From NCBI GenBank assembly GCA_036559745.1, contig DATBSO010000050.1:35972-99971 (forward strand): a DNA stretch of 64,000 nucleotides. Direction: 5' to 3'. The position numbers and the translations under genes are program-made. Of the stretch, positions 1-63,012 are shown one piece after another (position 1 is the stretch's first letter; each line of letters begins with the position of its first letter). The notes below the pieces were generated by a model that had not been told where the DNA came from, searched no databases, and saw only the letters and a list, made by a program, of their open reading frames with translations. Source of the DNA: Gemmatimonadales bacterium (GTDB lineage: Bacteria > Gemmatimonadota > Gemmatimonadetes > Gemmatimonadales > GWC2-71-9).

Positions 1-121
1 GCGCCCCCGATCTCCGACGCACGATACACGGCCTGTTCCGGACTGTACGCGACGCCCCCACGGGGGATCGCGACTCCGAAGCCGGCGAGCAGCTCCTTCG
101 CTTGGTACTCGTGGATGTCCA
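1..121 (-). CDS. Succinate--CoA / malate--CoA ligase beta subunit (SucC/MtkA family), N-terminal fragment running off the window
   Basis: Not in the ORF track because it is truncated. The reverse complement from 121 reads [40 protein letters not shown], the canonical ATP-grasp N-terminus of SucC/MtkA. GGAG lies about 12 nt upstream. It sits downstream of sgaA-mcl on the same strand. Confidence 0.55.
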
Positions 122-141
122 TTGGGTAACGCTCCGTTGAT

Positions 142-228
142 GGCTGAAGGCTAAAGGCTGAAGGCTGGAAGCTTCCAGTCTTCGGGCTTAGCCTTTAGCC
201 TTTGGCCTTCAGCCTCTAGCCTCCAGCT
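142..228. repeat. Inverted heptamer-array hairpin element, copy 1 (GGCTRAA x4 / YYYAGCC x6 around the CTGGAAG|CTTCCAG core)
   Basis: 142-172 reads GGCTGAA GGCTAAA GGCTGAA GGCTGGA AGC. 187-228 reads CTTAGCC TTTAGCC TTTGGCC TTCAGCC TCTAGCC TCCAGCT. There is a perfect central palindrome CTGGAAGCTTCCAG. The arms are imperfect reverse complements. Confidence 0.8.
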
Positions 229-1150
229 TCGCCGCCATCTGGACGACGTTCTGCGCCATCCGCGCCGACGCCGCATCGATCATGCGGCCATCGAGCTGAG
301 CCGCGCCGCGGCCCTCGCGCGCGGCGTGGTCCAGCGCGACCAAGATCCGTTTGGCCTTTTCGACCTCGGCGGGCAACGGGGTGAAGATCTCGTTGGCCAG
401 CTCGATCTGCGAGGGGTGGATCGCCCACTTTCCTTCTATACCCAGTGCGGCGCCCCGTCGCCCGGCCGCCCGGTATCCCTCGGGATCCTTGAAATCCCCG
501 AACGGCCCGTCGATCGGCCGCAGCCCATACGCCCGGCAGGCGACCACCATCCGCGAGATTGCGGCATGCCATTGGTCGCCGGGGTAGTCGGGATTGAGTC
601 CCCCGATACTCACGGTGCGCGCCCGGCAGCTCGCCGCATAGTCGGCCACGCCGAAGTGCATCGCCTCGAGCCGGCGGCTCGACTGCGCGATCGCCTCGAC
701 GTTGGCCATCCCCAGCGCGGTCTCGATGAGGACGTCGATCCCGATCCGGTGCGGGATCGCTTTCGCCTCCTCGATCTGGGTGAGCAGCGCGTCGACCAGA
801 TAGACATCCGAAGCTACGCCGACCTTGGGAATCAGAACGGTGTCGAGACGATGGCCGGCCTGCTCCACGACGTCCACCACGTCGCGGTACATGTAGTGGG
901 TGTCGATACCATTGATGCGGACGCAGATGGTCTTGCCGCGACCACGCCAGTCATGCTCCAGCAGTCCCGCAATCGTGTTGCTGCGGGCGCGCTCCTTGTC
1001 GCCGGGAGCGACCGCGTCCTCGAGGTCGAGAAATACGTAGTCCGCACCGCTCTCCAGTGCCTTGGCGAACATCCCCGGCTGGGACCCGGGAACGGCCAGC
1101 TCACTCCGCTGCAGCCGAGCGCGCGCCGGCTCGTGGCGCGTATGACTCAT
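209..1150 (-). CDS. mcl: L-malyl-CoA / beta-methylmalyl-CoA lyase (HpcH/HpaI-CitE aldolase family)
   Basis: Internal ATG of ORF 209..1540 (MSHTRHEP...). Contains FLDLEDAVAP, VRINGIDT..YRDVVDVVEQAG, IPKVG, DGPFGDF and GKWAIHPSQIELANEIF, which I recall as closely resembling characterised Mcl. The ATGA overlap with the sgaA stop is at 1147-1150. Confidence 0.85.
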   Translation of the reverse strand: MSHTRHEPARARLQRSELAVPGSQPGMFAKALESGADYVFLDLEDAVAPGDKERARSNTIAGLLEHDWRGRGKTICVRINGIDTHYMYRDVVDVVEQAGHRLDTVLIPKVGVASDVYLVDALLTQIEEAKAIPHRIGIDVLIETALGMANVEAIAQSSRRLEAMHFGVADYAASCRARTVSIGGLNPDYPGDQWHAAISRMVVACRAYGLRPIDGPFGDFKDPEGYRAAGRRGAALGIEGKWAIHPSQIELANEIFTPLPAEVEKAKRILVALDHAAREGRGAAQLDGRMIDAASARMAQNVVQMAAKLEARG

Positions 1151-2409
1151 CGGCCGGCGCCGGCGGTGGCCTTCTCCTTGGCGGGCGTCGCGGCCGATTG
1201 CGCATCGGGGGCGCGCGGCGGCAGGTCGCGCTTGGCCAGCGGAGCGGCGGTGCTCCGCCAATATTCCTGGGCCGCCGCCACACCGCTGCCCGGGGTCAAT
1301 TTGATACCGACATCCCGCATGGCCATCTCCGCGCCCGCGATGCCACCGAGCAGCATGAGCTCGTTCAGATCGCCGAGGTGGCCGATCCGGAAGAGGCGGC
1401 CGGCCATCCGGGCGAGCCCCGCCCCGAGGGCGAGGTTGTAGCGACGGAAGGCGACGTCGATCACTTCGGCGGCATTGATGCCCGCCGGGACCATGATCGC
1501 CGTGACGGTGTCGGAGTTCCACTTGGGCGCGCGGGCGCACAGCTCGAGGCCCCAGGCTTTCACCGCCTGCCGGGTGCCTTCGGCCAGACGGTGGTGGCGG
1601 GCGAACACGTTCTCGAGCCCCTCCTCGAACAGCATCGCGATCGACTCGCGGAGCCCGTAGAGCATCGGGAGCGACGGGGTGTAGGGGAAGTATCCCGTTG
1701 CGTTGGCCTTCCGCATGTCGCCGAAGTCGAAGAAGACCCGTGGCAGCTTGGCCTGCTCATAGAGTGCGAGCGCCTTCTGGCTCGCGCAGACAATGCCAAG
1801 ACCGGCCGGCAGCATGAGGCCCTTCTGGGAGCCCGTCACCGCGAGGTCGACGCCCCACTCGTCCATCCGGAAGTCGATGCTCGCGATCGAGCTGACCCCG
1901 TCCACCATGAGGAGGGCGGGATGCTTGGTATTATTGATCGCCTTGCGGATCCCCGCGACGTCGCTGGTGACGCCAGTCGCAGTCTCGTTGTGGGTGAAGA
2001 GCACCGCCTTGATCTGATGCTGCTTGTCGGCGGCGAGCGCCTCCTGATACCGTTCGACCGGCGCGCCTTCGCCCCACTCGGTGTCGAGCACGTCGACCTG
2101 GAGCCCGAGCCGTTGGGCCATGTCGATCCACAGATGGCTGAACATGCCGAACCGCGCAGCGAGGACGCGATCGCCCGGGGACAGCGTATTGGCGAGCGAG
2201 GCCTCCCAGGCTCCGGTGCCGCTGGCCGGAAAGATGAAGGCCTGGCCGGAGGAGGTCTTGAAGACCTTCTTGAGCTCTTCGAGACACGTGGCGGCAAGCG
2301 CCGGAAATGTGGAGGAGCGGTGGTCCTCCATCGCCACGTGCATGGCGCGCAGGACCCGGTCGGGCACATTGGTAGGGCCCGGGACGAAGAGGAAGTTGCG
2401 GCCGGCCAT
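1147..2409 (-). CDS. sgaA: Serine--glyoxylate (serine-pyruvate) aminotransferase, class V PLP enzyme
   Basis: MAGRNFLFVPGPTNVPDRVLRAM..., with the SQKGLMLPAGLG PLP-lysine region. I chose the ATG at 2409 because it is preceded by GAGAGG. Coupled to mcl. Confidence 0.8.
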   Translation of the reverse strand: MAGRNFLFVPGPTNVPDRVLRAMHVAMEDHRSSTFPALAATCLEELKKVFKTSSGQAFIFPASGTGAWEASLANTLSPGDRVLAARFGMFSHLWIDMAQRLGLQVDVLDTEWGEGAPVERYQEALAADKQHQIKAVLFTHNETATGVTSDVAGIRKAINNTKHPALLMVDGVSSIASIDFRMDEWGVDLAVTGSQKGLMLPAGLGIVCASQKALALYEQAKLPRVFFDFGDMRKANATGYFPYTPSLPMLYGLRESIAMLFEEGLENVFARHHRLAEGTRQAVKAWGLELCARAPKWNSDTVTAIMVPAGINAAEVIDVAFRRYNLALGAGLARMAGRLFRIGHLGDLNELMLLGGIAGAEMAMRDVGIKLTPGSGVAAAQEYWRSTAAPLAKRDLPPRAPDAQSAATPAKEKATAGAGR

Positions 2410-2508
2410 CGCGGAGCCTCTCTGTGAAAGATGAATCACCGGCGAGGCGGTACGCCGTCGCCGTTGCGGGCGGAGGTATTCGCCTCCGAATATTTATGCG
2501 TCATCCCT

Positions 2509-2537
2509 GATATATCACTTTGTGCTTTTTTTCACAA
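2509..2537 (-). promoter_or_regulatory. Candidate sigma70-type promoter for sgaA-mcl (TTGTGA-N17-TATATC), overlapped by a TGTGC-N6-TCACA palindrome at 2521-2536
   Basis: This is the only AT-rich patch in the sgaA / glycerate kinase divergent region. The hexamers were read directly. The palindrome resembles the CRP/FNR-family consensus TGTGA-N6-TCACA. Confidence 0.35.
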
Positions 2538-2547
2538 GGTTCCACTC

Positions 2548-3900
2548 GTGCCCCTGCCCGGCTCCGATTCCGCCACCGCTTCCCCGACCCACCACCTGCT
2601 GCGCGATCTCTATCGTGTTGCCACCGAGGCGGTTGATCCCGGACCAGCGCTCGCCGGGCGGCTGAGATCCCTGGCCTTGCCAACAGGCACCGAGCCTTGG
2701 ATCATCGCCCTCGGCAAGGCCGCGACGCCGATGGCGGAGGCCGCGGTCGCTGTGCTGCGCGAGCGAGGCGCCTCACCGGCCGGCGGCCTCATCGTCGCGC
2801 CTCGCGCCGGGGCCGTCCCCGACCCGCGTCTCACCGCGGTCGCGGGTGATCATCCCGAGCCCGGGCCTGGCTCCTTTGCGGCCGCCGAGGCGCTGGGATC
2901 ACTGGTCGCCCGGACCGTATCGGGCAGCGAAGTGTGGGTGCTGCTCTCCGGCGGCACGACCAGCCTCCTCGGGGCCCCGGAACCGGGGATCACCCCCGAC
3001 GAACTCACCGCGCTCTACGCCCTCCTGCTCGGTTCCGGCCTCGACATCACGGCGATGAACCGAATCCGGAAGCGGTTCTCCCGCTGGGGCGGCGGCAAGC
3101 TCGCTCGGGCCCTCCAGGGTTCCAGCGTCCGGGTCTACGTCGTCTCCGATGTCATCGGCGACGATCTCGCCTCGATCGGATCCGGGCCCTGCGTCCCGGA
3201 TCCTGCGACAGCCACGGAGGTGCGACAACTCTTGGAGACCGCCGGGCTCTGGACTCGCATTCCCGCCGCCGCGCGAGCCCTCGTCGCCGCCACCGAAGCC
3301 GGGAAAACACCGGAAACGCCAAAGCCCGGTGATCGAGCCTTCGCGCGGGTGTCCCACGAATTGATCGCCAGCAACAGGCTGGCCCTGGAGGCCGCTGCTC
3401 GTCACGCGGCGGCGGTGGGCCTCGCCCCGGAGGTGGCCGTGGAACCGCTGGCCGGGGAGGCGGCGGCGGCCGGGACGCGTCTGGCCGCCTTTCTCCTACA
3501 ACATTGCGGTCCCCCGGACATCCCGCAACCAGAGTCGGGAGGGACGCCGCGACGGTGCTTCATCTGGGGAGGGGAGACCACCGTGACCCTCGGCTCGGCG
3601 GCACCGGGTATGGGCGGTCGGTGCCAGGAGCTGGCGCTTGCCGCTGCCCGCACCCTCGACGGTGCGCCGGCCGGCGTGGCCCTGCTCGCGGCCGGCACCG
3701 ATGGGCGGGATGGACCCACCGATGCGGCCGGCGCCATCGTGGACCCTCGGACCTGGTCCGCGGCCATCGCCGGGGGCCGCGATCCCGAGCGGGATCTGCT
3801 CGGCCACGACGCGTACCGCTCGCTGGATGCGGCGCGCGCCCTGCTCCGCCCCGGCCTCACCGGTACCAACGTGATGGACATCGTCGTCGGCCTCTGCTGA
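2548..3900 (+). CDS. Glycerate 2-kinase / hydroxypyruvate reductase family protein (DUF4147 + MOFRL, TtuD/GckA type)
   Basis: Contains GKAA.PMA, GDHPEPG, LLSGGTTSL, NRIRKRFSRWGGGKLA, VSDVIGDDLASIGSGP, GGETTVT, GGRCQE, AAGTDGRDGPTDAAGA and TGTNVMD. I placed the start at the in-frame GTG 2548, downstream of the AT-rich promoter patch. The ATG at 2431 is the alternative. Confidence 0.75.
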   Translation: MPLPGSDSATASPTHHLLRDLYRVATEAVDPGPALAGRLRSLALPTGTEPWIIALGKAATPMAEAAVAVLRERGASPAGGLIVAPRAGAVPDPRLTAVAGDHPEPGPGSFAAAEALGSLVARTVSGSEVWVLLSGGTTSLLGAPEPGITPDELTALYALLLGSGLDITAMNRIRKRFSRWGGGKLARALQGSSVRVYVVSDVIGDDLASIGSGPCVPDPATATEVRQLLETAGLWTRIPAAARALVAATEAGKTPETPKPGDRAFARVSHELIASNRLALEAAARHAAAVGLAPEVAVEPLAGEAAAAGTRLAAFLLQHCGPPDIPQPESGGTPRRCFIWGGETTVTLGSAAPGMGGRCQELALAAARTLDGAPAGVALLAAGTDGRDGPTDAAGAIVDPRTWSAAIAGGRDPERDLLGHDAYRSLDAARALLRPGLTGTNVMDIVVGLC

Positions 3901-34423: not shown

Positions 34424-34429
34424 TGATGA

Positions 34430-34793
34430 TGGAGGCGCAGGGAATCGAACCCTGGTCCGAGTAAGCATCCAGAACAGCGTCTACGTGCGTAGGCCCGGCT
34501 TCTTACCGTGGCCGCGGGGTGGTGCCGAACCCACCTCCCCTTGGTCTAGCTCCGTGCTACTCTCACCGTCGGCGTCGGAGCGACGCGTCAGGCCAGTCCG
34601 GTTTTGCGATTCGACGAGCGGCGCCCCGGACGGGCTCCACCAGCCGAAGGCGCGTCAAGCGAGACTAGCTCAGCTTACGCGGCCAATGCCAGGTTAGAGT
34701 TGGCAGTTGAAGCATTCCAGATGGTTTTACCAGGATTCTGGACCTGGGCACGCTGCTATCCCTTCCACAAACCCGTCGAAGCCAGTCGCCCCC
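34430..34793 (-). ncRNA. ssrA: tmRNA (SsrA), standard one-piece form, about 364 nt
   Basis: The 5' end GGGGGCGACTGGCTTCGACGGG pairs with the 3' end ...GGTTCGATTCCCTGCGCCTCCA (7-bp acceptor stem with G3:U, T-arm present). Tag reading frame GCC AAC TCT AAC CTG GCA TTG GCC GCG TAA = ANSNLALAA (34704..34675). The 3' CCA is not encoded. Confidence 0.92.
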
Positions 34794-47916: not shown

Positions 47917-49200
47917 TCAATTCGCTCCCGCGAGCCTCGCGACGAGCTGATCGCGCGGCACCGCGACCTGCGATTTGTCCTCGAGATTTCGGAGCATGAC
48001 CTCGTTGCGAGCCCGTTCGTCCGGACCGATCAAGACAGCCCACCGCGCATGCCGGGCATTCGCCAGGTTGAGCTGCTTGCCGAGAGCGAGCACGTTCAGG
48101 GCGTACTCCACACGGAGGTTCGCGTCGCGGAGCTCGTGGGCCGTCGCGAGAATGTGAGGCAGGTCGTCACCCGTGATGCCCGCGATGAAGACGTCGATGG
48201 ACGGAGTTGCCTCGGGCGTGACGCCCCGATCCTTGAGCAGCTCTCCCAGCACGACGTCCCCCATGCCGAACCCCAGCGCGGGAAGATCCACGCCGCCCAG
48301 AGACTCGAGCAGGTTATCGTAGCGCCCGCCGCCGCAGATCGCCCGAAGCGACTGGTCGGCGTCGAAGAGCTCGAACACCGTCCCGGTGTAGTACGCGAGA
48401 CCGCGAACGATCGTGAGATCGAGATCGACGAAGCCGCCGAGCCCCATGGCATCGAGCGCCTCGAGCGTGGAGCGCAGCGGCTCGGCGGCTGAACCGGCGC
48501 CCGGATACTTGCGCACGATCTCGTCGAGGTCTACAAGACCCTTGAAGGACTCGAGCTCTCGAACAGCAGTCTCGGGCGCGCCGGTATCCAGCAAGGCCTG
48601 CTTTCGCGACGCATATTCCCGCCGTCCCATCTTATCCAGCACCTGATGGGCCAGCCTTTCCCTTTCTCCGCCGAACCCGAGAGATGAAAGGATCGCCCCG
48701 AGCAGACGACGATCTGAGATTCGTACTCGGACATCGTCCGGCCCGAGCTGAAAAGCCCGCATGACGTCGATCGCGAGGGCCACGATTTCGGCATCACCGA
48801 GCGGGCCCCGCTCGCCGATCAGATCGCAATTGAGCTGAAAGTGCTCTCGAAGCCGCCCCCGTTGCTGCCGCTCGTACCGGAAGAGCTGAGGGATCGAGAA
48901 CCACCGGATCGGTTTCTTGAGGCTCGTGGCGCTCGCGGCGACCATGCGCGCCAGCGTGGGCGTCATCTCGGGCCGCAGGGCCACGTCCCGTTCGCCCTTG
49001 TCCGTGAAGGCGTAGAGCTGGCCCACGATCTCGTCACCGCTCTTGGCGGTGTACAGCTCGAGCGGCTCGAGCGGCGGACCGTCGTACTCCTCGAAGCCGT
49101 AGCGGGCCGCCACCGTCCGCCAGGTGCGGAAGATGTAAGCGCGGAGCGCGAAGTCGCCCGGGTAGAAATCGCGAAAGCCCGGCAGGGCCTGGGTTTGCAT
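47917..49200 (-). CDS. hisS: Histidine--tRNA ligase
   Basis: Internal ATG (MQTQALPGFRDFYP...). Contains RPEMTPTLARM, F.IPQLFRYERPQ-like, and GGGRYD. The upstream 60 codons of the track ORF are the repeat element. Confidence 0.9.
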   Translation of the reverse strand: MQTQALPGFRDFYPGDFALRAYIFRTWRTVAARYGFEEYDGPPLEPLELYTAKSGDEIVGQLYAFTDKGERDVALRPEMTPTLARMVAASATSLKKPIRWFSIPQLFRYERQQRGRLREHFQLNCDLIGERGPLGDAEIVALAIDVMRAFQLGPDDVRVRISDRRLLGAILSSLGFGGERERLAHQVLDKMGRREYASRKQALLDTGAPETAVRELESFKGLVDLDEIVRKYPGAGSAAEPLRSTLEALDAMGLGGFVDLDLTIVRGLAYYTGTVFELFDADQSLRAICGGGRYDNLLESLGGVDLPALGFGMGDVVLGELLKDRGVTPEATPSIDVFIAGITGDDLPHILATAHELRDANLRVEYALNVLALGKQLNLANARHARWAVLIGPDERARNEVMLRNLEDKSQVAVPRDQLVARLAGAN

Positions 49201-49220: not shown

Positions 49221-49360
49221 AGGGGAGCGGGGAGAAGGGAGAGGGACAGGAGAAGGGAGAAGCGGGAAAGGGAGAACGGCTGTGCGTCATCCCTCTTCTC
49301 CAGTCTCCCTTCTCCCTTCTCCCTTCTTCCTTCTTCCCGCTCCCTGCTCCCTTCTCCTCA
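49221..49360. repeat. Inverted heptamer-array hairpin element, copy 2 (AAGGGAG-type array 49221-49277 / CTCCCTT x10 array 49291-49360)
   Basis: The right arm reads CCCTCTT CTCCAGT CTCCCTT CTCCCTT CTCCCTT CTTCCTT CTTCCCG CTCCCTG CTCCCTT CTCCTCA. The left arm is its purine-rich imperfect complement. The loop contains GCGTCAT. Confidence 0.8.
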
Positions 49361-55264: not shown

Positions 55265-56331
55265 CGCGCGGAATCTCCCCGAGCCGAATCGCGAGGCGGT
55301 GCGGCCGGTGCCGGGTTCGGCGCGGGCGCCGGCTTGGGCGCCGGTGCCGGCGCGCCGCTGTCGGGCCGCGTGACCCGGCGCTTCGCGCGGGCGACCGAAT
55401 CACGGCGTGCCGCCGCCGCATCGCGCGCCGCCTGCGCGAGAGAATCGGCCCGGCGCGCCCGCAGGAGCGAGTCGAGCTTGTGCGCCTGGAGCACCGAGTC
55501 GCTCGGGAATGCGGACGCGAGATCGGCCGACGGCGGCGCGACCAGGATGAGCACGTGCCCGACCGAGCCGGGATTTGCCGCCGGAAGGAGGCGGTAGACC
55601 CGCTCCCAGCCGGCCTGCTCCCGCACCAGGCCCGTGACCGTCCCGACCGGGATGCCCTTGGGATACACACCGCCCAGGCCGGACGAGAGGACCAGCGAGC
55701 CCGGGGGAACCGAATCACGATACGGCACGCCGCGGAACTCGAGGGCCCCTTCCCCGCTCACCGCCGAGAGCGATGGTGCCACCACGCCCGCGGCGTTGCC
55801 GGAGACGGTGAATGCGCTCACGCGAAACTCCGGATGGGCCCAGGTCATCGCGATGCTGGTGCGCTCGGCAGTGCTCAGCACGACACCGATCAGTCCCTCG
55901 GGCGATACCACCGGATCGAAAGGCGACACCCCCTGGGATGATCCCGCGCTGAGCAGCAGCGTCCGGGCATCGGTGGCCTGGGATTGGTGAAGCACTTCGG
56001 CCGCGACGTACGAGCTGGAGAGGCGTCGGCTCAGCGCGAGGAGCTGACGGAGGCGTTCGTTTTCGGCGAGAAGCGACGGGAGTCCCTGAGCGAGATATGC
56101 GGAGGAGTCACGCTGCGCCGTGACCTCCCGGAACCGCACCCGGCTGGTTCGACCCTCTTCCGCGCGAACCTGGAGCCACACCAGGGGCGCGAGCACGGTT
56201 TCCCGCAATGCATCGGCGACATCGAGGCCGATTTTCGTCGGGGCGACCAGGGCAACCACGGACACGCCCAGGCAGACGAAGAACAGGACGGTGTCGCGGC
56301 GCGTGTATGATCGATCCGACGCGCTGGCCAT
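55261..56331 (-). CDS. mreC: Rod shape-determining protein MreC, with a Pro/Ala-rich C-terminal tail
   Basis: N-terminal TM helix, a coiled coil (ENERLRQLL), then beta-barrel repeats GLIG.V, GGVYPKGIPVG.V. Confidence 0.8.
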   Translation of the reverse strand: MASASDRSYTRRDTVLFFVCLGVSVVALVAPTKIGLDVADALRETVLAPLVWLQVRAEEGRTSRVRFREVTAQRDSSAYLAQGLPSLLAENERLRQLLALSRRLSSSYVAAEVLHQSQATDARTLLLSAGSSQGVSPFDPVVSPEGLIGVVLSTAERTSIAMTWAHPEFRVSAFTVSGNAAGVVAPSLSAVSGEGALEFRGVPYRDSVPPGSLVLSSGLGGVYPKGIPVGTVTGLVREQAGWERVYRLLPAANPGSVGHVLILVAPPSADLASAFPSDSVLQAHKLDSLLRARRADSLAQAARDAAAARRDSVARAKRRVTRPDSGAPAPAPKPAPAPNPAPAAPPRDSARGDSAR

Positions 56332-62396: not shown

Positions 62397-62502
62397 TGCC
62401 TTCTCTCTGTGTACTCTCTGTGGGTGGGTGATAGTCCCTGGCCGCCGGTCACGGCCGGTCGCCGCATGGCAACCCGGCCGCTCGTGACTCCCGACACGCA
62501 GA

Positions 62503-62533
62503 GGGCGCCCCGACTGGTGAGATCAGGGCGCCC
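62503..62533 (-). promoter_or_regulatory. Stem-loop in the rpsO-pnp intergenic leader, formed by two copies of the self-complementary octamer GGGCGCCC
   Basis: GGGCGCCC occurs at 62503-62510 and 62526-62533, with a 15-nt loop and no U-tract. It sits where a processing or autoregulatory hairpin is known for enterobacterial pnp. Confidence 0.35.
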
Positions 62534-62549
62534 CTGCGGCGCGCGACGA

Positions 62550-62810
62550 CTAGTGACGGAGACCGAGCTGCTCGATCAGAGCCCGGTAGCTCTCGAGGTC
62601 ACTTCGCTTGAGATACGTGAGCAGTCTGCGGCGGGTGCCGACCATCTTCAGGAGGCCGCGGCGGCCGTGGTGGTCCTTCGGGTGGGTCCGGAAGTGATCG
62701 GTGAGCGAATTGATCCGCTCGGTGAGGAGCGCCACCTGCACCTTGGTGGATCCGGTGTCGTCCGGGTGGGCTTGATGCCGGGCGGTGACCGCCTGCTTGT
62801 CGAAGCTCAT
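62550..62810 (-). CDS. rpsO: 30S ribosomal protein S15
   Basis: Internal ATG (MSFDKQAV...). Contains DTGST.VQVALLT.RI..LT.HF..H.KDHH.RRGLL.MV..RR.LL.YL. AAGAGGA lies upstream. Confidence 0.9.
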
Positions 62811-62861: not shown

Positions 62862-62890
62862 ATTATAACCAGCTTCGGGCTCATGGGCAA
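62862..62890 (-). promoter_or_regulatory. rpsO promoter candidate TTGCCC-N17-TATAAT
   Basis: A perfect -10 TATAAT (reverse complement of 62862-62867). The -35 TTGCCC is the reverse complement of 62885-62890. It sits immediately downstream of heptamer hairpin copy 3, about 45 nt upstream of the rpsO ATG. Confidence 0.55.
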
Positions 62891-62892
62891 GC

Positions 62893-63012
62893 GGAGGAGG
62901 CTAGAGGCTAAAGGCTCGAGGCTCTTTCCCGGGCATCGTCCTAAGTCCGCGTCATGAGCCCCTAGCCTTTAGCCTCCAGCCTTCAGCCTCTGGCCTTTAG
63001 CCTTTAGCCCCC
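62893..63012. repeat. Inverted heptamer-array hairpin element, copy 3 (GGCTNRA array 62899-62924 / YYYAGCC x7 array 62961-63009)
   Basis: The left arm reads GGCTAGA GGCTAAA GGCTCGA GGCTC. The right arm reads CCTAGCC TTTAGCC TCCAGCC TTCAGCC TCTGGCC TTTAGCC TTTAGCC. The spacer is about 31 nt and contains GCGTCAT. Same unit family as copy 1. Confidence 0.8.

Follow-up and report, generated by a model that had tools for sequence, protein, structure and literature searches.

Repetitive extragenic palindromic (REP) sequences and bacterial interspersed mosaic elements (BIMEs) of enterobacteria and pseudomonads share a conserved core, an imperfect 20-40-nt palindrome. They are associated with RAYT transposases, and REP elements stabilize the upstream mRNA. 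Tandem heptanucleotide repeats form another kind of dispersed repeat, which in Calothrix and Nostoc are called STRR. According to Mrazek et al. (2007), as cited in two later studies (PMC4692102, PMC4679880), heptanucleotide repeats are an over-represented class of long simple sequence repeats (SSRs) in many prokaryotes, and polymerase slippage over a contact of approximately 7 nt was proposed as the cause of the 7-nt step; a report on the heptanucleotide repeats of Calothrix is cited in PMC4692102. Here, a hairpin element built from heptamers is described from a stretch of 64,000 nt (the window) of a Gemmatimonadales bacterium (lineage GWC2-71-9; contig DATBSO010000050.1, positions 35,972 to 99,971). 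It is located between the minus-strand gene mcl and an mtkA-type gene and belongs to an already described kind, the Xanthomonas-type inverted heptamer pairs among the heptanucleotide SSRs. On balance, we favor the reading that this inverted pair of arrays was generated by slippage and template switching at a permissive gene end and that any effect of the RNA hairpin is a by-product.

Comparison with described repeat systems

The GGGAATC heptamers of Xanthomonas and the GGGGAYT heptamers of Nostoc occur in arrays of approximately 4 units (Rehm et al. 2015, PMC4692102). In Xanthomonas, 70-75 convergent pairs per genome are positioned on opposite strands with stem-loop potential, and these pairs are found between open reading frames (ORFs) that are aligned, at most 50 nt from a stop codon or overlapping it. 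Most of these repeats are transcribed, and the array length varies between species while the paired or single type is kept (PMC4692102). Both the inverted-pair architecture and the stop codon position match those of the element studied here. The first-pass annotation of this DNA had not recognized a described repeat family, a view that must be abandoned given that heptanucleotide SSRs are known and that inverted pairs were described for Xanthomonas GGGAATC. Differences from the Xanthomonas repeats include the phylum (Gemmatimonadota), the proportion of paired arrays (17 of 20 here versus approximately 40% in Xanthomonas) and the unit itself, which differs between orthologous sites. Two further elements in the window are termed copies 2 and 3 below. 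By sequence reading, copy 3 (GGGAGAA) is rich in G3 tracts like GGGAATC, while copies 1 and 2 (GGCTRAA) contain no G3 tract. The G-rich, GGGNATC-like unit that characterizes G-quadruplex repeats of the Xanthomonas type is not found in GGCTRAA. Since copies 1 and 2 do not contain G-tracts, the G-quadruplex is not the common denominator with the Xanthomonas repeats and was rejected as a common basis of the elements.

With the long-SSR class as a whole, the arrays share head-to-tail 7-nt units that are over-represented relative to other periods, an enrichment that is genome-specific, and a mostly intergenic location, often inside operons. The window elements fall within this class, as they contain at least three tandem 7-nt copies, are located at gene ends and vary in copy number and sequence between relatives. 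However, the descriptions of the class refer to direct arrays, its definition includes neither inverted pairing nor placement at stop codons, and the unit sequences differ. The TAACTGA repeats of Beggiatoaceae and cyanobacteria (MacGregor 2015, PMC4679880) are likewise intergenic heptamer arrays with stops in all forward frames and a scattered phylogenetic distribution, but most of them immediately precede a start codon and are arranged as direct repeats (with one inverted case in 170), and one unit dominates the genome. The multicopy heptanucleotide elements of Geobacter metallireducens consist of 4-5 tandem repeats at dozens of sites, some of which are drawn as strand-switching (paired) sites; they differ in their units (GGACCGG, MTYCTGA), in also occurring inside genes and in having been interpreted as regulator sites without a test (PMC2700814). 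Like REP sequences and BIMEs, the elements described here are extragenic hairpins that are dispersed over sites between genes in co-directional or convergent arrangement. In contrast to these, only the 7-nt unit is common to the copies, which have unrelated loops and flanks, and a tandem array with several pairing registers forms the stem. The element had first been called REP-like, a term that does not apply in the strict sense.

Architecture of the heptamer hairpin at the end of mcl

Direct reading of the sequence confirmed the arrangement noted in the first-pass annotation, in which four 7-mers face six complementary 7-mers around a palindrome of 14 bp. The features of copy 1 and its two flanking genes are as follows.

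1-122, minus strand: 5' part of the gene for an MtkA/SucC-type ATP-grasp (succinyl-CoA-ligase-type) CoA ligase, MDIHEYQAK..., which starts at 122 and runs off the window
142-169, minus strand: left array, four units long, with the plus-strand sequence GGCTGAA GGCTAAA GGCTGAA GGCTGGA (direct reading and the program TRF); 3' arm in the minus-strand mRNA
165-178, no strand assigned: perfect 14-bp palindrome CTGGAAGCTTCCAG (direct reading); head-to-head junction of both arrays with the dyad centre at 171/172
174-187, minus strand: decayed units TCCAGTC TTCGGGC, which extend the right-hand array to the dyad (direct reading)
187-228, minus strand: right array of six units, CTTAGCC TTTAGCC TTTGGCC TTCAGCC TCTAGCC TCCAGCT as written on the plus strand
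209-211, minus strand: mcl stop codon TGA, within the unit TTCAGCC (sequence reading and ORF call)
209-1150, minus strand: mcl, malyl-CoA lyase of the HpcH/HpaI family, 313 aa, C-terminus KLEARG

The palindrome proved to be the site at which the two arrays meet head to head, and because the decayed units follow directly after it, almost no separate loop is left. In the mRNA the right array forms the 5' arm with units of the GGCTRRA type, and the last six mcl codons are encoded there, so that the previously noted KLEARG tail and the stop codon inside a heptamer could both be verified. The minus-strand RNA from 125-240 was predicted to fold with -56 kcal/mol (z = -4.55), including 23 consecutive pairs, and none of 200 shuffled sequences folded as well. 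The stem is followed by AUCAACGGAGCG in this RNA, without a U-tract. The closest Mcl proteins by similarity are those of Gemmatimonadales; public gene calls start Mcl elsewhere and yield a 287-aa version compared with the 313-aa ORF found here.

As GGCTRAA carries TAA/TGA/TAG and its length of 7 nt is not divisible by 3, a stop codon is met in each reading frame within three units (approximately 7 codons). A gene whose 3' end runs into such an array consequently obtains a short array-encoded tail and a stop codon, which is exemplified by KLEARG and by the termini KLEAKG and LLKAKG of a relative. The array-supplied stop is a direct sequence consequence and does not in itself indicate a function. 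Phase variation was considered and rejected, as only a few residues at the C-terminus of Mcl change when units are gained or lost, and no gene is turned off.

Two further elements in the window

The presence of the same unit family far away from copy 1 was confirmed (copy 2, 62899-63009), as was a structurally analogous element with the unit GGGAGAA (copy 3, 49221-49357).

49221-49276, minus strand: copy 3, array of the GGGAGAA type as written on the plus strand; C-rich 3' arm in the mRNA
49295-49357, minus strand: copy 3, nine CTTCTCC units as written on the plus strand; G-rich 5' arm in the mRNA
62862-62890, minus strand: promoter-like TTGCCC-17-TATAAT, located directly downstream of copy 2, with rpsO (62550-62810) following
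62899-62924, minus strand: copy 2, GGCTAGA GGCTAAA GGCTCGA GGCTC as written on the plus strand; 3' arm in the mRNA
62961-63009, minus strand: copy 2, seven YYYAGCC units as written on the plus strand; 5' arm in the mRNA

At copy 2, the stop codon TAA (63004-63006) of a gene for an rseP-like M50 protease is located within a GGCTAAA unit, the last of the array. The promoter-like site between copy 2 and rpsO(-pnp) places this copy at the end of a transcription unit and not inside an operon. Copy 3 fills the spacer up to the start of hisS at 49200, and the stop codon TGA of a folC-like gene (49358-49360) abuts the array outside the units. All three elements had been stated to lie between co-directional genes and to overlap the upstream stop codon; the first part is correct for all of them, while the overlap applies to copies 1 and 2 and not to copy 3. 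Each of the three fills its spacer from the stop codon to the next start codon or promoter-like site. The minus-strand RNAs of copies 2 and 3 were also predicted to fold stably (z = -2.75 and z = -4.94, respectively).

Repeat statistics of the window set these elements apart. The sequence GGCTNNAGGCT was found 12 times against 0.39 expected occurrences, each time within copies 1 and 2. Only five tandem arrays with at least three copies are present in the 64 kb, all with a period of 7 and all within the three elements, for which TRF returned copy numbers of 4.3, 5.0, 3.9, 6.7, 7.0 and 9.0. The inverted arms are 92% and 86% complementary. A terminator scan returned no call at any of the three elements (including 123-228 and 62893-63012) and no T-run was present after the stems; an intrinsic (Rho-independent) terminator was rejected, given the lack of a U-run after the stem. 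A search of the whole window against Rfam at gathering thresholds yielded no match to any of the three elements, the sole match being the tmRNA gene.

34427-34793, minus strand: tmRNA gene, full-length (Rfam RF00023, 132.7 bits)

Two other repeats were observed in the window. The rpsO-pnp spacer (approximately 62400-62545, minus strand) contains a hairpin, GGGGCGCCC ... GGGGCGCCC, which four relatives (L204, L205, L214 and L215) share and which is probably the usual rpsO terminator or pnp leader structure. A tandem 18-mer, GCCGGCGCCGGCTTCGGC, is repeated 2.7 times at 55304-55351, overlaps a run of CGGCGC hexamers and is probably coding.

Identical copies and a relative with a second pair

Two JGI metagenome contigs that were assembled separately (L001 and L002) contain copy 1 without a single base difference. 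The agreement of the window with two separate assemblies demonstrates that the repeat is not an assembly artefact, a possibility that had been raised at first pass. Contigs from short reads often end at the arrays: one stops 7 nt past the mcl stop codon (L203) and five begin inside the element between rseP and rpsO (L209-L213). Such breaks could be taken to indicate an assembly or sequencing error. With identical copies at hand, and with comparable arrays at the mcl-mtkA spacer of a 3.7-Mb contig as well as of over 15 further contigs from metagenomes, the probability of an artefact is considered negligible. Heptamer-array elements are probably under-represented in assemblies.

The 3.7-Mb contig (L003) stems from the closest relative that differs in sequence, with an Mcl that is 93% identical, and a related array is found in the same spacer. 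It comprises approximately 10 sense units (GGCTAGA GGCTAAA GGCTGAA AGCCGAA GGCCAAA AGCTGAA ...) and only 1.5 units of the complementary arm, and Mcl ends in KLEAKG. In the same genome (L064), a second inverted pair of GGCTRAA arrays gives rise to the stop codon of a pit-like gene (...LLKAKG), which is convergent with a glycosyltransferase gene. With two copies in the window, two in this relative, period-7 arrays and stable predicted folds, the first-pass description of a dispersed, hairpin-forming element of amplified heptamers is supported.

A gene cluster of the serine-cycle type is conserved in Gemmatimonadales (window 1-3900, L001 and L003) and encodes a glycerate-kinase-like DUF4147/MOFRL protein, serine-glyoxylate aminotransferase, Mcl, an mtkAB-like CoA ligase, a 2-hydroxyacid dehydrogenase and PEP carboxylase.

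Turnover of the heptamer unit at orthologous spacers

Further metagenomic mcl loci (80 in total) were retrieved, and spacer lengths were counted for 70 loci. Within the closer clade, the mcl-mtkA spacer repeatedly contains inverted heptamer arrays whose units differ between genomes, as listed here for the two arms.

L127: GTCGTCA / CGACTGA
L128: GCTATCC / GGATAGC
L134: CAGCTAW (14 units) / TTAGCTG (5 units)
L136: GGTCGTA / CTACGAC
L139 and L154: GGAGTCG / CGACTCC
L144: GGGTCTA / TAGACCC
L151: GGGAGTT / AACTCCC
L152: CAGCCGT / ACGGCTG
L153: AGCCATA / TATGGCT

Arms from the same locus fit each other. The 3' arm of a locus was the best partner of its own 5' arm in 10 of 12 loci, with a mean of -52 kcal/mol compared with -29 kcal/mol for foreign partners. 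In the comparison of orthologous spacers, which had been proposed at first pass, the copy number varies, and the arms can be very unequal in length (6 versus 4 units in copy 1, 14 versus 5 in L134 and 10 versus 1.5 in L003). In 43 of the 70 orthologues the spacer is shorter than 40 nt, often only 2-4 nt, and contains no element. The remaining long spacers include 16 of 27 that fold significantly better than shuffled sequences, some of them with unrelated REP-like hairpins. The sense arrays of the orthologues overlap the mcl stop codon and encode variable Mcl tails. Such array-translated C-termini, e.g. ...DGRTGGQADGRTAG, were observed in several predicted proteins (P0002, P0006, P0051, P0052, P0064 and P0112; loci L127-L154), with called lengths of 312-331 aa for an enzyme that does not differ otherwise.

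At the second site, between rseP and rpsO, no array was present in the close relatives L214-L216, and in L204-L208 an inverted pair of octamer arrays is wrapped around a REP-like palindrome. This palindrome, gtcatcccgagcgNagcgagggatc ... gatccctcgctccgctcgggatgac, occurs in relatives in both the mcl-mtkA spacer (L123, L129-L132) and the rseP-rpsO spacer (L205-L213), and in L205 and L208 it is nested centrally in the inverted octamer arrays GGAAGGAC / CCTTCCGT. A search for the REP-like motif in the window showed that it is absent there. A further inverted heptamer pair, GAGTCTC... / GAGACTT GAGACCT GAGACGT, was observed in the rpsO-pnp spacer of L214 and L215 (approximately 1820-1975) and is absent from the window.

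These data bear on the idea of a mobile REP- or MITE-like (miniature inverted-repeat transposable element) sequence that a transposase, such as one of the RAYT or IS200/IS605 type, would copy into new sites. One unit family is present at two distant sites of the window and twice, after mcl and after pit, in the genome of the relative, several contigs of one metagenome-assembled genome were matched in other phyla, and REP-like palindromes occupy the same spacers in relatives. Nevertheless, when four copies were aligned, the heptamer arrays alone could be aligned, whereas loops, flanks and unit numbers differ. Inspection revealed no flanking direct repeats at copies 1 and 2. At one orthologous site the unit changes gradually within related families (AGTCGCG, GGTCGCG, GGTCGTA, GGAGTCG), which fits evolution in place better than replacement. 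Transposase-driven copying is consequently regarded as improbable. Two specific assignments were rejected: a MITE, given the lack of target-site duplications or flanking direct repeats by inspection and of a conserved internal sequence, and a REP sequence or BIME, given the lack of a conserved 20-40-nt palindrome across the four aligned copies.

Distribution of heptamer arrays and the 7-nt period

Among 185,579 species genomes, at least 119 stretches with 3.5 units of the pattern GGCTNNA were detected, compared with approximately 4 expected according to our own estimate from the information content of the pattern. The matches listed cover at least 15 phyla and include Acidobacteriota, Planctomycetota, Verrucomicrobiota, Desulfobacterota, Gammaproteobacteria (including Pseudomonas), Cyanobacteria, Bacteroidota, Nitrospirota, Chloroflexota, Actinomycetota, Patescibacteria and others. 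Neighboring arrays of other heptamers were present at many of the listed loci, and other arrays of 7-9 nt are usually found alongside.

A census of periods was obtained from two sources. The Gemmatimonadales mcl loci, which were chosen independently of repeats, contained 22 arrays of period 7 and one of period 21, compared with 3, 2 and 1 arrays of periods 6, 8 and 9, respectively. IMG/VR contigs seeded by a period-7 array contained, per 1.09 Mb, 127 further arrays of period 7, 47 of period 8 and 28 of period 9, all of other units, and only 6 of period 6. Contigs seeded by a period-6 array mainly contained periods 6, 9, 12, 15 and 18, the coding type, and only 6 arrays of period 7. Taken together, arrays of 7-9 nt represent a genome-specific tendency that is distinct from coding repeats. 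Direct period scans of IMG/VR gave at least 120 matches each for periods 6 and 7 and 85 for period 8, raw counts that are not decisive. In an open-frame test, 49% of the arrays and 87% of random segments were located inside long frames. With a GC content of 68% this measure cannot be relied on, since arrays known to lie in spacers were likewise scored as inside a frame.

An inverted partner array within 210 nt was found for 4 of 4 arrays in the window, for 13 of 16 at Gemmatimonadales loci and for 35 of 153 in other phyla. Direct partners numbered 11, and the controls with reverse-only or complement-only partners yielded 1-2.

The variety of units also has consequences for the idea that the arrays are multivalent sites bound by a protein with a 7-nt reading register on DNA or RNA, such as a cold-shock/OB-fold protein or a global regulator, with the inverted pairing forming a symmetric site. 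In favor of this idea, the 7-nt period is specific and the unit families are genome-specific. Comparable proposals exist for the TAACTGA repeats, with one CspB protein per heptamer (PMC4679880), and for the Geobacter elements as sites of a global regulator (PMC2700814). However, two unrelated units (GGCTRAA and GGGAGAA) coexist within 64 kb, approximately 59 distinct units were counted among 62 non-seed arrays, and units differ at one orthologous site, so that no single sequence-specific binder would suffice. Binding of such a protein is judged very improbable as the explanation of the arrays.

Two side observations concern viral sequences. IMG/VR contigs classed as viral (L223-L342) are rich in heptamer arrays, e.g. 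L273 and L234 from IMGVR_UViG_3300011438_000025, and 11 GGCTNNA matches are located in one IMG/VR contig of 37 kb. The arrays on viral contigs hint that array formation tracks the host or lineage and not the replicon.

Maintenance on the level of DNA or of RNA

The reading of the element as a pair of SSR arrays with a dispensable hairpin would work as follows. The element would be one member of a genome-wide population of 7-nt arrays, some of 8-9 nt, in Gemmatimonadales and many other phyla, and these arrays would arise and change via replication slippage in 7-nt steps. Intrastrand template switching, or conversion across the hairpin, would keep the arms complementary on the level of the DNA. 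The arrays would persist where they are harmless, directly behind stop codons and in spacers between co-directional or convergent genes. If transcribed, the element would have to form a long stem of approximately 23 bp with several pairing registers between mcl and mtkA. Like a REP hairpin, this stem may impede 3'-exonucleases or serve as a weak terminator that lacks a U-tract. An effect of this kind would be a dispensable by-product and not the reason for the existence of the element; judged from sequence, a REP-like role of the RNA hairpin is plausible, although it would be dispensable.

Two comparisons were made between the strands. Folding energies of sense and antisense RNAs did not differ (p = 0.40). 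Among 352 aligned arm positions, 37 mismatches were found: 9 correspond to G-U on the sense transcript, 14 correspond to G-U on the antisense transcript, and the other 14 to neither. The lack of a sense-strand G-U bias argues against selection at the RNA level, although with 23 informative mismatches the power of the test is low. Together with the dispensability of the element, its unequal arms and the one-armed array of L003, the lack of strand bias favors an origin at the DNA level.

The main competitor is an RNA element under selection that protects the upstream mRNA against 3'-5' exonucleases, uncouples mcl from mtkA or causes partial termination without a U-tract. Its predicted stems are very stable, all three elements begin at or next to the stop codon of a co-directional gene, and copy 2 is positioned exactly between a gene end and the promoter-like site of rpsO. 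The arms co-vary across orthologues with differing units, and the 16 well-folding long spacers include unrelated REP-like hairpins. Xanthomonas transcripts start or stop at heptamer repeats capable of G-quadruplex formation more often than at control repeats (PMC4692102). On the other hand, no U-run follows the stems and no terminator was called at the three sites, the spacer element is lacking in 43 of 70 orthologous operons, L003 retains 10 sense units with only 1.5 antisense units, and neither the G-U pairs nor the often very unequal arms point to a selected RNA. The role as mRNA stabilizer, processing site or terminator that had been proposed at first pass is somewhat weakened by these comparisons of sequences, and a selected RNA element is regarded as a less likely explanation that stays alive owing to the persistent complementarity of the arms and the recurrent unrelated hairpins.

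Several points weigh against slippage and template switching as the full account. Both processes are themselves things that we infer, the three identical assemblies revealed no polymorphism in copy number, and the account leaves the step size of 7 nt unexplained. Arm complementarity is approximately 89% despite complete turnover of the unit, unrelated REP-like hairpins are found in the same spacer of L130-L132, and the elements are consistently positioned right at stop codons; each of these three observations could equally reflect selection for a hairpin.

A bolder proposal, which we consider doubtful, is that inverted heptamer arrays represent a distinct class of self-renewing hairpin elements and not mere SSR debris. 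Such an element could be nucleated at a short palindrome at the 3' end of a gene and grow symmetrically outward in steps of 7 nt, sometimes 8 nt. Its unit could be wholly replaced over genus-level divergence, with the sense array at the stop codon, the dyad and the complementary array being retained, and the class could extend over at least 15 phyla. If true, this would imply a dedicated, lineage-specific mechanism, or selection for terminators or mRNA-end hairpins that do not require a U-tract.

Implications

The over-representation of heptamer SSRs in bacteria has been known since 2007. New in this study are the phylum, a unit that is not G-rich, the near-universal pairing of arrays in Gemmatimonadales, and one orthologous site that contains different units whose arms co-vary. 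In practical terms, short-read assemblies break at the arrays, and gene calls are affected through C-terminal tails that vary and stop codons that are displaced. The mcl-mtkA spacer of Gemmatimonadales provides a natural series of dozens of genomes with the same architecture and differing units, ranging from absent to one-armed to fully paired elements. This series makes it testable whether the arms co-evolve via conversion at the DNA level or via selection on the transcript, and whether hairpins of this kind can terminate transcription in high-GC bacteria although they lack a U-tract.

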